Positions 55,986-62,957 of a stretch of DNA of 64,000 bases are shown here, piece by piece. The position numbers and the translations under genes are program-made. Source of the stretch: Minisyncoccota bacterium (GTDB lineage Bacteria; Patescibacteriota; Minisyncoccia; Minisyncoccales; GWA2-38-27); NCBI GenBank assembly GCA_028687715.1, contig JAQTZP010000004.1:25751-89750 (forward strand), written 5' to 3'. Positions within the stretch are counted from its first letter, which is position 1. Every line of letters begins with the position of its first letter. The notes under the pieces were generated by a model. It made no database searches, was not told the DNA's origin, and saw only the letters and a program-made list of their open reading frames with translations.

Positions 55986-56636
55986 CTAATTGTTTCCGAT
56001 TCCATTAATAAATCTAACTATATCGTGAGCAACGCTAGCGATTTTCACTTTTTTCTCTAAATCCGAGTCGCCATTATTGACGACTAGACAAGGAGTGCTT
56101 CCTTGAAAACATTTTTCTACTAATGTTCGCCATGCTTGATTACTTTCTTCTGAGACGTCCTCTTTAGAGAATCTTCCTTTATTTCTTACATCCGAATTAT
56201 TCAACATATCTTTTTGTCTTCTTTTCCAGGCACTATTTGCATCTACCTCAACATATATGGCACCCCTGAAAACTTTCTTATACCAAAGTCTTATTCTTTC
56301 TTTATAGACAATTGTTTTTCCAATATTATCTTGTTTAAGAAGAACTAAATGTAATGTAGCTACCGCTTTAATGTCTTCTCTTAAGAAACCCGCTAAGTAT
56401 GATTGAAAATAACCATCAGCGATTTCATCAATTTTCTCCGGAGGCATACTCTCTAAATGAAGATACCATTCTTTAGGAGTTGTTTCCGGAGAAAGAGGGT
56501 CCGCTGGATAACCAATAGCTTTCATAAAAACTTTTGTGCTTCTTATTACGATAATCTGCGGATCAATTAATTGAACTTCGTGTAAGATTGAATCTTTACC
56601 GGCACAATTCTGTCCAAAAATAGCGAATGCTGTCAT
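55986..56636 (-). CDS. P-loop NTPase / small-molecule kinase-like protein
   Basis: 216 aa. N-terminal Walker A-like FGQNCAGKDS. Strong SD (AAAGGAGGTGAAAAATG). Substrate unknown. Confidence 0.5.
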   Translation of the reverse strand: MTAFAIFGQNCAGKDSILHEVQLIDPQIIVIRSTKVFMKAIGYPADPLSPETTPKEWYLHLESMPPEKIDEIADGYFQSYLAGFLREDIKAVATLHLVLLKQDNIGKTIVYKERIRLWYKKVFRGAIYVEVDANSAWKRRQKDMLNNSDVRNKGRFSKEDVSEESNQAWRTLVEKCFQGSTPCLVVNNGDSDLEKKVKIASVAHDIVRFINGIGNN

Positions 56637-56838
56637 TTTTCACCTCCTTTCAAGCCCAAACACATTGTACAAAAAATTTGACTAATTGATTTTAACCTTG
56701 TAAAATAAAATTATTAGAAATTTAGGTCGTTTAAATAAAAAATAATAAATTTATGCATAAATCACTTGACAAAAATAAGTTTAAAAGATATCTTAAATAC
56801 AGAACACTTCAGCAGAACCTTAACATCTTAAAAAGGAG

Positions 56839-57615
56839 ATGAGAAAGATGGTTAAGCCAGAATCTATAGCATTGTATGTTATCAAAAATATACCGCTTAT
56901 TAGGGCGGGTGATAACCTTGGTGTAATAATTGCTAATTGTATTCAGAAGCAAGATATGTTAATTTTAGATAGAGATATTCTTGTTATTGCACAAAAAGTT
57001 GTTTCTCGCGCCGAGAATAGAATGGTTCTATTAAGTAAAGTTATACCTTCTCAGGAAGCTAATTATCTTGCGTCAAAAACTAGACGCGATCCCCGGTTAT
57101 GCCAGTTGATCCTTGATCATAGTAGAGTTTTGTACTGTAACGATAAAGCCATCATTACCCAAGATCGATTAGGCATTGTCAGCACAAGTGCTGGTATTGA
57201 TCGTTCGAATTCTGATTCGCCAGAAGGAGAAATAGCAATATTACTTCCTGAAAACCCCGATTTAAGTGCCCGGAGAGTTCGAGACAAAATTAAGGAAATA
57301 ATGGATGTGAATGTGGCCGTGATAATAAGCGATAGCTTAGGTCGACCTTGGCGCGAAGGATCGGTTGGTATGGCGATCGGTTTAGCTGGTATTAAAGCAA
57401 TCGAAGCTACTGAAAAAAGAGACTTAAGTGGTCGAGTTATTCATCCCGAAATTGCTTTGGTTGATAGGGTTGCCGCCGCTGCATCTATTTTGATGGGAGA
57501 AGCAGATGAGGGCTATCCTGTTATTATTGTTCGGGGAATAAATTACACGCCATCCGATACAGTAAAAATCAGAGATCTTCTTCGTCCAGCCGAAGAAGAT
57601 CAGGTATGGGAATAA
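56839..57615 (+). CDS. CofE-family (F420-0:gamma-glutamyl ligase-like) protein
   Basis: 258 aa. LIRAGDNLGVII, DILVIAQKVVSRAE, SAGIDRSN, IISDSLGRPWREGSVGMAIGLAGI and LMGEADEGYPVIIVRG align by eye with archaeal CofE. An AGGAG lies upstream; the second ATG at 56848 is a possible start. Confidence 0.8.
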   Translation: MRKMVKPESIALYVIKNIPLIRAGDNLGVIIANCIQKQDMLILDRDILVIAQKVVSRAENRMVLLSKVIPSQEANYLASKTRRDPRLCQLILDHSRVLYCNDKAIITQDRLGIVSTSAGIDRSNSDSPEGEIAILLPENPDLSARRVRDKIKEIMDVNVAVIISDSLGRPWREGSVGMAIGLAGIKAIEATEKRDLSGRVIHPEIALVDRVAAAASILMGEADEGYPVIIVRGINYTPSDTVKIRDLLRPAEEDQVWE

Positions 57616-57624
57616 TTTTTTTAG

Positions 57625-57653
57625 GTCATAACCCAATAGGTTGTGGCTTTTTT
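57625..57653 (+). terminator. Intrinsic terminator after the CofE-like gene
   Basis: Stem GTCATAACC (57625-57633) / GGTTGTGGC (57639-57647, with two G-U pairs), loop CAATA, then TTTTTT. Confidence 0.6.
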
Positions 57654-57664
57654 AAAAACTAAAT

Positions 57665-60417: not shown

Positions 60418-60434
60418 TTATTATTTTAATAACT

Positions 60435-61685
60435 ATGAATAATTTATTTTTTGATTCAAATTTAGTGTCAATAGAAAAAAGATCATTTGAACTTGTAGAA
60501 CGAAAGGGAATTGGGCATCCCGATACGCTAGCTGACGGAGTGGCAGAAGCGATTTGTTTGGAGTATTCAAATTATTGCTATAATCATTTCGGAGCTATTT
60601 TACATCAGATGTTAGATAAAATTATGTTTATCGGGGGAAAAGGTGAATTTGCTTTTAATTACGGAAAAATGTTAGAACCGTGGAAACTTATAATAAACGG
60701 AAAGCTAACTGAAAGTTTCGGTAATACCCAGATTAATTATCAGGATTTGGCTACTCGTGTTACTAAAGATTATTTACGGAAAGTAATTCCTAACTTAGAT
60801 GTAGAACGTTGGCTGAATATTATTTTTTATACTTCGACATCTTCGAAAGCCCCCTATTGGTTTCATCCTCGTACGCTAACTGATGTGCCAGATGCCAGTA
60901 ATCCTTATGCTAATGATACGGTGACAGCAGTCGGGTATTGGCCTTTATCAATAACAGAAAGATTAACTTTATTAATGGAAAGGTATTTTTATCACAAAAA
61001 TGATACTCCTCGTTTTTCTTTTATTGGACAAGATATTAAGATATTATCTGTTAGAAAAAAGAAAAATATTGATATTACCATATGCGTACCTTTTTTCTCC
61101 GCTAAAACCCCTAATGCTGATGTATACTTTAGTCGCAAAAGAAAAATACAAAATGATTTACAGAATATAGCTAATCAATTTTTGAAAGGAAAATACAAAG
61201 TTATACTATCTATTAATACCCAGGATGAAATGATCAATAATCCGTCCAGAGGTATAGGATTTTACTTTGTAGTTTCCGGATCAGCGTTAGATTCGGGAGA
61301 AGAAGGTGTGGTTGGACGAGGAAATCGATCTCGAGGATTAATTTCAAATGTCCGACCTTACAGTATAGAAGGAATCCATGGCAAAAATCCAGTGTATCAT
61401 GTTGGTAAAGTTTTTAACTATATTGCTGATTTGTTTGCTAAAAAGATTTCTGAGGAATTTAGGTGTGAATGTAATGTTTTTATATCATCTCGAAATGGCG
61501 ATGATTTGAATATACCTAGACATATTATTATTCAAACAGATAAAAAAATTATTAATAAAAAGAAAGTTAACGTTGTATTAGATAAAATTTTGGAGAAAAA
61601 TATTGCTAAAGAAATTTTATTGCATAAGCCATATTTACCAATCCCGGGCGGTGGAAATGGATATGTAGCATCATTAAGCATTTAG
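60435..61685 (+). CDS. Archaeal-type S-adenosylmethionine synthetase (MAT) family protein
   Basis: About 416 aa from the ATG at 60435. The N-terminal ELVERKGIGHPDTLADGVAEA matches the archaeal MAT signature (ERKGxGHPDxxxDxxAE). The size also matches archaeal MAT. Confidence 0.7.
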   Translation: MNNLFFDSNLVSIEKRSFELVERKGIGHPDTLADGVAEAICLEYSNYCYNHFGAILHQMLDKIMFIGGKGEFAFNYGKMLEPWKLIINGKLTESFGNTQINYQDLATRVTKDYLRKVIPNLDVERWLNIIFYTSTSSKAPYWFHPRTLTDVPDASNPYANDTVTAVGYWPLSITERLTLLMERYFYHKNDTPRFSFIGQDIKILSVRKKKNIDITICVPFFSAKTPNADVYFSRKRKIQNDLQNIANQFLKGKYKVILSINTQDEMINNPSRGIGFYFVVSGSALDSGEEGVVGRGNRSRGLISNVRPYSIEGIHGKNPVYHVGKVFNYIADLFAKKISEEFRCECNVFISSRNGDDLNIPRHIIIQTDKKIINKKKVNVVLDKILEKNIAKEILLHKPYLPIPGGGNGYVASLSI

Positions 61686-61696
61686 TTTATATTATT

Positions 61697-62710
61697 ATGG
61701 GTACGTTATTTGCATTTGTGTGTAATATATCGATGAGAGATCGTTCTGTAAATGTATTTAGTAGTACAGATGCTTTTTTACCATTGATAGAAAAGGGAGA
61801 ATACATCCCTTTTATTCCGGGGTGGAAATGTAGTACAAAAAAGGTAAATACAAAATATTCTATTTTTTATTTTCCAGGAAAAGAAATAAAATTAATATAC
61901 TCAAAAGATAAGTGCTCAATAAAACTATACGGGCCCCTTAACTATTTTATCGATGGACAAGCTATTGCTTATTTGATTTATTCTTTACTTGAGCTTGATC
62001 GACAAGAATATAATCAGACAACAGCCCATTTGGCAGCTTGTTCTAAAAATGGCCGTGCAGTAATATTATTAGGTGAACGAGGGGCTGGTAAGACATCTAT
62101 TCTTTTAATGTTGTGTAGGGACTATGGCTACAAATTAATAGCTAATGATATCGCTTTGATCGGTTTTAATAAACAGCGAGGAAAGAGCTTTATTGTCGAT
62201 GGAACAAAAATTTTTGGTCTTCGTCATACCGCTGCGGAAAAAAACCATCCTGATTTATTAAAATTATTTCCGAAAACTATTAAAGATTCATGGACTACTA
62301 AGCTTTTTATTTCTCCATATGAAATTAACGTACAAATAGAAAATAAAAAAGTAGTTGTATCATCAGTATTTTTTTGTCATCTTGATTCTGGTATCAGAAA
62401 AATTTTTTTAGATAGAATGTCTGGAAGTTGGATTAAAATCAACCTATACGAAAATTTTTCTCGTTATATTAGAGGATCAGCTTTGATACCCTTTCTTGAT
62501 GGTAAGAATTATAGTAACATTGGTTATATCCCTAATTTGGATACAATAGAATTTCATCAAAAAAGAATTAATCTTATTAATTATTTAGTTAATAAGCTTG
62601 GTATCACGTATATCTCCGGTAGCGATATTCATAAGATTTGTGATATAATACACAAAAAACACCGGAAAGTAGCTAAAATATTTAAAATTTTGAACAGAGA
62701 AAGAATCTAA
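61697..62710 (+). CDS. HprK-C-terminal-like P-loop kinase family protein
   Basis: 337 aa. HLAACSKNGRAVILLGERGAGKTSILLMLCRDYGYKLIANDIALI follows the HPr-kinase-like pattern (HaS..., GxxGxGKS/T, aDD). Confidence 0.55.
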   Translation: MGTLFAFVCNISMRDRSVNVFSSTDAFLPLIEKGEYIPFIPGWKCSTKKVNTKYSIFYFPGKEIKLIYSKDKCSIKLYGPLNYFIDGQAIAYLIYSLLELDRQEYNQTTAHLAACSKNGRAVILLGERGAGKTSILLMLCRDYGYKLIANDIALIGFNKQRGKSFIVDGTKIFGLRHTAAEKNHPDLLKLFPKTIKDSWTTKLFISPYEINVQIENKKVVVSSVFFCHLDSGIRKIFLDRMSGSWIKINLYENFSRYIRGSALIPFLDGKNYSNIGYIPNLDTIEFHQKRINLINYLVNKLGITYISGSDIHKICDIIHKKHRKVAKIFKILNRERI

Positions 62711-62816
62711 AATATCTTCAGGTGAAATTATTATTCAAGTTTTTTGAACGGATATTGGTTTCTCAAGAAATAGTTGAGATATAATGGATTATATGAATAT
62801 ATTTTTATAAAATATC

Positions 62817-62957
62817 ATGAAATTAAAAGAAGAAACAAAAATGTCAATCAGCTTTATGCTTTTTGTCATTACATTTATTTTAATGTCTCCTTTATTATTG
62901 TTTCTTTTTATGGCTAAGAAATTATGGGGCTGGAGGGTAATTGATAATCTTTTTTAA
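62817..62957 (+). CDS. Possible small hydrophobic peptide, 46 aa
   Basis: Own translation gives MKLKEETKMSISFMLFVITFILMSPLLLFLFMAKKLWGWRVIDNLF. It has one TM-like helix, is below the track cut-off, and has no supporting signal. Confidence 0.2.
   Translation: MKLKEETKMSISFMLFVITFILMSPLLLFLFMAKKLWGWRVIDNLF

Follow-up and report, generated by a model that had tools for sequence, protein, structure and literature searches.

Bacillithiol-type biosynthesis follows a logic in which a glycosyl group is transferred to a hydroxy-acid and an amino acid is then ligated, and it uses the GT4 enzyme BshA together with BshC. In GpgS, a retaining glycosyltransferase, the acceptor carboxylate is held by Thr187 (Thr139 in mannosylglycerate synthase, MgS) and by the preceding backbone nitrogen (PMC2581804). 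The F420-0:gamma-glutamyl ligase CofE forms a GTP-dependent acyl-phosphate on a carboxylate beside an O-substituted carbon and then amidates it, and in Af-CofE the residues F92 and R234 sandwich the deazaflavin (PMC10861534). Among the archaeal methionine adenosyltransferases (MATs) of solved structure, I351 lines the S-methyl pocket in MjMAT (PMC9298006). Here we describe a locus that encodes relatives of these enzymes, a CofE-fold ligase, an MgS/GpgS-like glycosyltransferase (GT) and an archaeal-like MAT, together with a kinase of the HPr-kinase (HprK) fold. It lies at positions 56848-62710 of a 64,000-nucleotide stretch (hereafter the window) of contig JAQTZP010000004.1 from a Minisyncoccota bacterium, and represents a four-enzyme module that is widespread and had not been described before. 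Each enzyme comes from a known superfamily; the pathway and the MAT subfamilies locked to such cassettes appear undescribed. A literature search, in which not all journals were covered, returned no description of this gene combination, nor of archaeal-type MATs as cassette components in bacteria of the candidate phyla radiation (CPR).

Results

A four-gene module conserved across loci

Across 57 related loci (individual loci are given L numbers below), the recurring core consists of a MAT whose GDDG motif reads GEEG, an HprK-fold kinase, a GT and a CofE. In Buchananbacteria, Yanofskybacteria, further Parcubacteria and metagenome contigs, homologues of the kinase gene have matching neighbours. 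The first 11 distinct loci all had GT, MAT and kinase, nine of them had CofE as well, and all three loci reached through MAT homologues of 43-53% identity carried the cassette. The initial annotation of the window, made from the sequence alone, had held that the locus fits no described pathway and had asked whether its neighbourhood is conserved; the same gene set recurs in related loci, and the lack of fit to a described pathway is upheld. Its picture of a four-gene operon preceded by CofE is revised, as CofE belongs to the core and the radical S-adenosylmethionine (SAM) enzyme (rSAM) of the operon is accessory.

To see how specific the association is to this MAT, we used a metagenome scan seeded on the MAT alone, which yielded 80 loci that were sorted by one MAT motif. 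The GEEG type accounted for 44 loci, and at least one cassette partner was found in 36 of the 38 with at least 2.5 kb of flank, and in 17/17 with at least 3 kb on each side. MATs of the GDEG, GDDG and GDSG types accounted for 35 loci, with cassette partners in 0/27 of those with comparable flank (36/38 vs 0/27, Fisher's exact test, p = 2.8e-16).

The module has been extensively rearranged. More than 20 gene orders were counted among the 57 GEEG loci; the kinase gene lies directly downstream of the MAT gene in 36/46 loci, and all four core genes are present in 31. The identities of the four core proteins co-vary from locus to locus, and the linkage holds down to ~33% identity. GT and CofE are fused in four loci (L025, L032, L036 and L038), forming a single 673-aa protein in L025, and in L023 an APH-family kinase and a HAD protein stand in place of the HprK-fold gene. 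With two GEEG contigs at a GC content of 0.68-0.69, the cassette extends beyond low-GC CPR genomes; in one annotated high-GC locus (L056), GT, kinase, B12-binding rSAM, a GT28-like gene, CofE and MAT form a single operon. Linkage that persists through rearrangements, GT::CofE fusion and replacement of the kinase fold, and that is limited to a single MAT subtype, argues that the four proteins share one pathway.

Organization of the locus in the window

The positions of the genes and their tight spacing, as first annotated, were reproduced when re-measured. Four intergenic gaps of 49, 26, 17 and 11 nt separate the plus-strand genes from CofE to the kinase (Table 1). The CofE open reading frame (ORF) opens at 56839, and a strong Shine-Dalgarno (SD) sequence, AGGAG, suits the second ATG, at 56848, which gives a 255-aa gene call. 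CofE had been credited with its own SD and terminator: the SD is present, and the terminator was not recovered, as the 6-bp hairpin with 2 GC pairs at 57628-57644, followed by a T6 run, was not called by the terminator scan. The only plus-strand terminator-like site that the scan placed downstream of the kinase gene is the one in Table 1; such sites are consensus matches, with no enrichment over shuffled sequences. Between the kinase gene and this site lies a 46-aa hydrophobic ORF (62817-62957) with one predicted membrane helix. It is a gene call in the Logan assemblies and is conserved in no other cassette locus; its end coincides with that of the region first singled out (62957). The contig of the window is also present in three Logan assemblies and in one NCBI metagenome-assembled genome of a Candidatus Pacebacteria bacterium.

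Table 1. Genes and signals of the cassette locus, in window coordinates.
Feature	Position	Strand	Family or signal
Divergent 216-aa gene, not a module component	55986..56636	-	
CofE-fold GTP-dependent carboxylate:amino-acid ligase, core	56848..57615	+	PF01996, TIGR01916
Class-B (B12-binding) radical SAM, lineage-variable tailoring gene	57665..59245	+	PF02310 + PF04055
MGS/GpgS-like retaining GT-A glycosyltransferase, core	59272..60417	+	PF21969 + PF00535
GEEG-subtype archaeal-like MAT, core	60435..61685	+	PF01941
HPr-kinase/PEPCK-fold P-loop kinase, core, usually directly downstream of MAT	61697..62710	+	
Terminator-like hairpin + T-run, likely transcription-unit end	63040..63056	+	consensus match

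Five of the six family calls hold: CofE, class-B rSAM, GT-A, archaeal-type MAT and HPr-kinase-fold P-loop. Profile searches confirmed the first four of these; they supported neither PF07475 for the kinase nor the assignment of the 216-aa gene as a P-loop kinase.

The CofE-fold ligase and the glycosyltransferase

The ligase matches PF01996 with 213 bits (cutoff 25) and TIGR01916 with 232 bits (cutoff 180.65), and the CofE profile aligns to Af-CofE (2phn) with 217 bits. It has the family, the fold and the metal-, GTP- and catalytic residues of the F420-0:gamma-glutamyl ligase and is likely to follow the same chemistry (PMC10861534). Among 38 cassette CofEs, E47, D109, D150 and G153 are present in 38/38, D196 in 37/38 and R157 in 35/38. 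The deazaflavin contacts, in contrast, are not conserved: F92 is found in 0/38, with V, A, M, H or T instead, and R234 in 8/38. In the window CofE, Ala replaces F92 and the Arg corresponding to R234 is retained. Since the catalytic residues are kept and the deazaflavin-stacking pair is lost, the product is not expected to be F420, and the cassette CofE is predicted to be a ligase whose substrate has another headgroup. No member of the CofC, CofD, CofG or CofH families was found in window ORFs of at least 120 aa. The earlier view that this is not F420 biosynthesis is thus borne out, and the F420 pathway was rejected on the lost chromophore pocket and the absence of these families from the window. 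Unlike the CofE of F420 synthesis, the cassette enzyme has neither CofC, CofD nor FO synthase beside it; its partners are GT, kinase and MAT, and it is sometimes fused to the GT.

The GT scores 38.7 bits against PF21969 (MGS_GT, cutoff 27) and also matches PF00535. The top PDB matches of its profile are mannosylglycerate synthase (2y4k/2bo4, E = 4.5e-8), followed by GpgS and MpgS, so that MgS (GT78) and GpgS/MpgS (GT81/GT55) are its closest solved relatives, with the DxD motif, the metal His and the carboxylate Thr in common. The invariant residues are D96xD98, K73, R127, T135, a QPxGGE loop and D184, and H208 is kept in at least 90% of sequences. By a hand count on the profile alignment, K73, D96/D98, R127, T135, QPxGGE, D184 and H208 correspond to K76, D100/D102, R131, T139, PLGGE, D192 and H217 of MgS. 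Because the Thr that holds the acceptor carboxylate is retained, a hydroxy-carboxylic acid is our best guess for the predicted GT acceptor. The GT falls short of the curated GpgS model NF010496 (38.8 bits vs cutoff 262). HD_4 or HAD proteins and the kinase in many cassette loci resemble the two-step GpgS/GpgP route; unlike the MgS and GpgS systems, the locus has no cognate GpgP or MpgP, and a ligase and a MAT are not known from compatible-solute pathways.

The kinase

The kinase has a Walker A motif, an invariant Asn-Asp and several conserved Arg, and adopts the catalytic-domain fold of HPr kinase/phosphorylase. It stays far below the cutoffs of the curated models for HPr kinase/phosphorylase, FomB, lasso-peptide kinases and the HprK-related A and B families: among hpr-ser, HprK_rel_A/B and PF07475, TIGR04352 gave 16 bits against a cutoff of 200, and PF07475 gave no match. 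Distant relatives weakly match HprK-related, FomB and PEPCK models (20-35 bits). Unlike HprK-type kinases, the cassette kinase has an N-terminal beta-rich domain of its own, of ~100 aa, and no gene for an HPr, phosphotransferase system (PTS) or peptide substrate lies nearby; no PTS or HPr family occurs among the called genes of the 13 loci for which families were listed. An analogy to lasso-peptide tailoring had been drawn for this kinase, and we found no support for it. The family is sizeable, with 182 representatives at E < 1e-30 in an exhaustive profile search, and a pattern scan of a genome collection recovered three full-length kinase loci.

A distinct MAT subfamily

The MAT, annotated by NCBI as a methionine adenosyltransferase, matches PF01941 with 298 bits and is ~35% identical to the solved archaeal enzymes. 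It reaches no NCBIfam equivalog cutoff, the best match being NF003362 with 368 bits under a cutoff of 481. We compared 132 cassette-type sequences with four solved archaeal MATs (MjMAT, PfMAT, TkMAT and SsMAT). HPD, H58, D62, ND (162/163), K204, Y273, GRGN, GKNP and VGK are kept in the cassette MATs, and the catalytic motifs (HPD, ND, GRGNR and GKNP..VGK) are kept in at least 90% of the 132 sequences. The retained residues include H58, the His that binds the methionine carboxylate, and Y273, the Tyr that stacks on adenine.

Around this shared framework, several positions at or near the substrate site differ. A three-way comparison that included the non-cassette GDEG subtype assigned D285E (which gives GEEG), A171W, L187F, N188Y/W and I351N/H to the cassette subtype specifically, and showed R126P, A221P, A219C and D286E to be common to the cassette and GDEG enzymes. 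GDDG has become GEEG in all cassette MATs, I351 is replaced by N or H, and the gating loop, which carries an insert of five residues, is remodelled. The equivalence to MjMAT D146/L147 is alignment-dependent, two alignments disagreeing, and was not used as evidence. The cassette enzymes differ from the archaeal MATs as a separate bacterial subfamily, with GEEG for GDDG, W171, F187, Y188, N351 and the rebuilt gating loop, and with these changes in the active site, specific to the subtype, another substrate is conceivable.

The GDEG subtype has a neighbourhood of its own. In its 29 loci (among L058-L101), GT, CofE and kinase partners were never found. Instead, 22-24 of the 29 place the MAT next to a ~400-aa protein and a Peptidase_S51/GATase-like protein (examples are L072:3730-6852, L075:6989-10157 and L078:1620-4703). 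The ~400-aa protein has no Pfam match; it has an N-terminal Cys-rich, Zn-ribbon-like segment and a 'SFGLERMVW' motif resembling those of class-II aminoacyl-tRNA synthetases (aaRS). This MAT and its partners look like another undescribed MAT-linked cassette.

The radical SAM enzyme and other accessory genes

The rSAM of the window matches PF02310 (49.5 bits) and PF04055 (72 bits), and its CxxxCxxC motif reads CFYNCTFC. It falls in no characterised subfamily, as all 22 NCBIfam matches are far below cutoff, the best being ApyD with 95 vs 750 bits. It is a lineage-variable tailoring gene and probably encodes a C-methylase. The MAT had been thought to be there to feed this enzyme; the MAT is in every locus and class-B rSAM homologues in only 8/57, including the high-GC L056, and this was rejected as the main logic of the module. 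Loci without the rSAM carry Lar_N, shikimate-dehydrogenase (SDH)-like or TylCIII-type genes instead. Since the MAT is universal and methylases are not, SAM supply is a thin explanation for its presence.

The other accessories recur at different rates among the 57 GEEG loci: SDH-like proteins in 26, a xylose-isomerase-like TIM barrel in 18, an HD_4 phosphohydrolase in 16, Lar_N in five, HAD_2 in four, a TylCIII-type SAM-dependent C-methyltransferase in two (inside the cassette in L014, with a homologue in L029), GFO/IDH/MocA in two and the APH kinase in one. None of the common accessories of other loci was found anywhere in this window. Beside the cassette in two loci (L009:6352-8081 and L011:1950-3734), a ~405-aa protein without a Pfam match is paired with a DJ-1/PfpI protein.

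Two further class-B rSAM genes, 27-28% identical to that of the cassette, lie in the window at 341-1837 and 4463-6001 on the minus strand. Between them are a Mur-ligase-like gene (1834-3156), a gene for a protein consisting only of the LeuA allosteric/dimerisation domain (3229-3660) and ruvA (3822-4382). Three B12-binding rSAMs in 64 kb of a small genome are notable.

Neighbouring genes and genomic setting

The divergent 216-aa gene had been described as a second, P-loop kinase-like gene with a strong SD. The SD is there (GGAGG); the kinase identity did not stand, as the protein has no Pfam, NCBIfam or PDB match and no homologue among 5.8e9 proteins. It has only a Walker-A-like GQNCAGKDS, and its single-sequence AlphaFold2 model is unusable (pLDDT 35). 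Two kinase-like proteins were first proposed for the system. The HprK-fold protein is the only one of them that belongs to it; the 216-aa gene, an ORFan present in no other cassette locus, was dropped as a component. The HAD protein at 52967-53779, once suggested as a partner, fared no better: this HAD-IIB gene is in no other locus and matches MPGP models only at E ~4e-4, and the HAD_2 and HD_4 proteins that lie inside many cassettes are unrelated to it. Together with a NUDIX gene and a phosphoribosyl pyrophosphate (PRPP) synthase, neither conserved with the cassette, it was rejected as a component. A defence system or phage cargo was likewise rejected, as padloc and phrogs returned nothing for the core genes; side matches linked the rSAM generically to PDC-M51A and the neighbouring MNT gene to PDC-S09.

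Directly downstream of the cassette, at 63146-63978, is a toxin-antitoxin pair of an MNT-type nucleotidyltransferase and a HepT-like protein; similar pairs flank the L023 cassette. Two MazG-like pyrophosphatase paralogues, 70% identical, lie at 54407-54730 of the window and at L002:12313-12642, ~300 nt past the window end. They bracket the cassette and the toxin-antitoxin stretch, where the GC content is 0.306 vs 0.359 in the rest of the window, and this bracketed low-GC stretch may be a laterally acquired island. Further past the window end (L002:12882-14380), a PqqD-rSAM-SPASM maturase of 452 aa, an overlapping 47-aa Lys/Arg-rich ORF with two Cys and a Trm112-fused methyltransferase form a possible locus for a ribosomally synthesized and post-translationally modified peptide (RiPP), separate from the cassette.

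Elsewhere in the window, dnaA (30431-31780) and dnaN (31984-33114) sit at the cumulative GC-skew minimum (~30-32 kb), which indicates that the window spans the chromosomal replication origin. PrgI-like, TraG P-loop ATPase and type IV secretion pilin genes and a type II secretion/type IV pilus-type ATPase gene (24959-27816, 39210-39647 and 11726-13042) are consistent with the pili and secretion systems typical of CPR episymbionts. Large surface-type proteins are encoded at 14241-19758 and 34939-37014; they include a 1421-aa protein with only an Ig_Rha78A match, a lamin-tail-domain protein and a 691-aa protein without a Pfam match.

Discussion

The analysis shows the four-gene module and the genes that belong to it, the folds of the enzymes and the residues kept and lost. 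From these we propose, as the most parsimonious chemistry, a small-molecule pathway, with predicted substrates, step order and product, that would make a glycosylated hydroxy-acid–glutamate conjugate, phosphorylated and, in this organism, probably C-methylated. We give this proposal an even chance. In a first step, the GT would move a hexose from an NDP-sugar to the hydroxyl of a glycerate-, phosphoglycerate- or lactate-type hydroxy-carboxylic acid, as suggested by the retained catalytic and carboxylate-binding residues of MgS and GpgS; in other loci, one of the variable enzymes (Lar_N, SDH-like, Ldh_2, GFO or TIM-barrel) may prepare this acceptor. The CofE-fold ligase would then activate the free carboxylate beside the O-substituted carbon and amidate it with L-glutamate or another amino acid, a local chemistry that would equal that at the phospholactyl group of F420-0. 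Consecutive action of GT and CofE is supported by the GT::CofE fusions. Next, the HprK-fold kinase would phosphorylate a hydroxyl of the acceptor or the conjugate, a function supported by its non-orthologous replacement with an APH kinase in L023, and in many loci an HD_4 or HAD phosphohydrolase would remove the phosphate, as in the GpgS/GpgP logic. Finally, the dedicated MAT would make SAM or a close analogue as co-substrate, and here the B12-binding rSAM would methylate an unactivated carbon. As in bacillithiol-type logic, the proposed pathway would combine a sugar with a hydroxy-carboxylic acid and ligate an amino acid; bacillithiol differs in using unrelated enzyme families and neither a MAT nor a kinase.

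Several observations weigh against this pathway. Our choice of acceptor and of ligated amino acid is a guess, and the GT resembles MgS and GpgS weakly (E = 1e-8 to 1e-5) and over its N-terminal 225 residues only. The SDH-like proteins and TIM barrels of other loci point to a cyclitol or another hydroxy-acid. CofE, present in most loci, is missing within reach in L010, L015, L026, L034 and L042. Methylases adjoin the cassette in only ~10/57 loci, so a universal MAT is poorly explained by SAM for methylation, and the MAT may simply be the organism's sole SAM synthetase.

Within this proposal the MAT is the least secure element. If the GEEG enzyme adenosylated not free methionine but a pathway intermediate, such as an N-acylated methionine or homocysteine conjugate or a hydroxyl, the product would be a new adenosyl- or sulfonium metabolite or cofactor, and CofE would recognise a nucleoside-like headgroup instead of deazaflavin. 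This would account for a MAT that is the one universal, subtype-specific partner, with GEEG, I351N/H, A171W, L187F and N188Y at or near its substrate site, a rebuilt gating loop and NCBIfam equivalog cutoffs unreached, for a CofE that has lost F92 and usually R234 with the rest of its site kept, and for a GDEG subtype likewise locked to an amide-forming, aaRS-like partner. We nevertheless think it unlikely: the triphosphate and catalytic motifs, His58 and Tyr273 are all kept, which makes ordinary SAM synthesis the simplest reading, the hosts have many SAM-dependent enzymes and need a MAT, and the gating-loop residue equivalences are alignment-dependent. Doubtful, yet worth stating, is the broader proposal that the GEEG MAT is a pathway-dedicated adenosyltransferase whose product is an adenosyl- or sulfonium-bearing glycosyl-hydroxyacyl-amino-acid, and that the GDEG subtype, together with its aaRS-like ligase and S51 peptidase-like partners, marks a second pathway that is likewise undescribed. 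Conversely, the four genes might have no joint function at all, the MAT being a housekeeping enzyme whose neighbours are kept by inherited synteny in small genomes. The NCBI label, the intact catalytic motifs and the lack of a detectable bacterial MetK in the 64-kb window, a small part of the genome, agree with this; it is made improbable by linkage that survives more than 20 rearrangements, ~33% identity and a move to high-GC non-CPR contigs, by the GT::CofE fusions, by the presence of a non-homologous kinase where the HprK-fold one would otherwise lie, and by the limitation of the linkage to one MAT subtype when the sister bacterial subtype has wholly different conserved neighbours.

The relationship of the GT to GpgS, the initiating enzyme of methylglucose lipopolysaccharide (MGLP), raises the thought that the cassette primes or decorates an envelope glycopolymer or glycolipid, for example a methylated polysaccharide begun on a glycosyl-hydroxy-acid as with glucosylglycerate and the mycobacterial MGLP. 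Extra GTs beside the cassette in L010, L025 and L056 (GT2, GT28-like and GT4), CDP-alcohol phosphatidyltransferase and CarS-like genes downstream in L004/L005 and the methylases of some loci fit such a role. These extra GTs and lipid genes are sporadic, however, and the loci share no conserved flippase, polymerase or transporter. The core enzymes are soluble, and known polymer pathways employ neither a CofE-type ligase nor a dedicated MAT; we would not expect this reading to prove correct. Salvage or tailoring of F420 or a deazaflavin-type cofactor obtained from archaeal partners is very improbable. A CofE that scores above the TIGR01916 equivalog cutoff and 217 bits to Af-CofE, and that in the window retains Arg at the R234 position, speaks for it, as does a weak CofC-like gene 7 kb from the cassette in L024. 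Across the cassette CofEs, however, the stacking pair is lost as described above, no CofC, CofD, CofG or CofH occurs in the window or in the other Pfam-listed loci bar that weak L024 match, and F420 biosynthesis is not known to involve a GT, a kinase or a MAT (PMC10861534). Equally remote, in our judgement, is the idea of a ribosomal peptide or protein as the target, to which these enzymes would add phosphate, sugar, glutamate and methyl groups. In its favour, some kinases of the HprK-fold family act on peptides, the best NCBIfam match of the rSAM, though far below cutoff, is the RiPP enzyme ApyD, and the PqqD-rSAM-SPASM gene with its 47-aa ORF lies ~2.2 kb past the window end. The PqqD-rSAM gene is separated from the cassette by the toxin-antitoxin pair and a MazG-like gene and is in no other family-listed locus; the cassettes contain no RiPP recognition element, cyclase, protease or exporter, and the GT keeps the Thr that binds a small-molecule carboxylate. 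When ORFs of 35 aa or more from 13 loci were clustered, no small ORF proved to be conserved beyond antisense shadows of core genes. The lack of a conserved precursor peptide argues against a RiPP, and the RiPP candidate was dropped on this ground; the initial annotation had likewise recognised no RiPP cluster here.

With this module, CofE-fold ligases would act in a pathway beyond those of F420 and folate. Rather than forming a single housekeeping family, the bacterial 'archaeal-type' MATs fall into two or more subtypes, each tied to a separate set of ligase-type partners, which raises the question of whether SAM is their product and, if so, whether it serves a purpose of the cassette's own. 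If the GEEG enzyme is a dedicated adenosyltransferase, a new metabolite or cofactor would be widespread in Parcubacteria and in some high-GC bacteria. The operon is small (5.9 kb) and directly testable. As the five-gene block is kept in many minimal genomes of CPR/Patescibacteria and is also found in unrelated high-GC bacteria, its product, which could be a cofactor, a protectant or a primer of the envelope, is likely to matter for the way these bacteria live.

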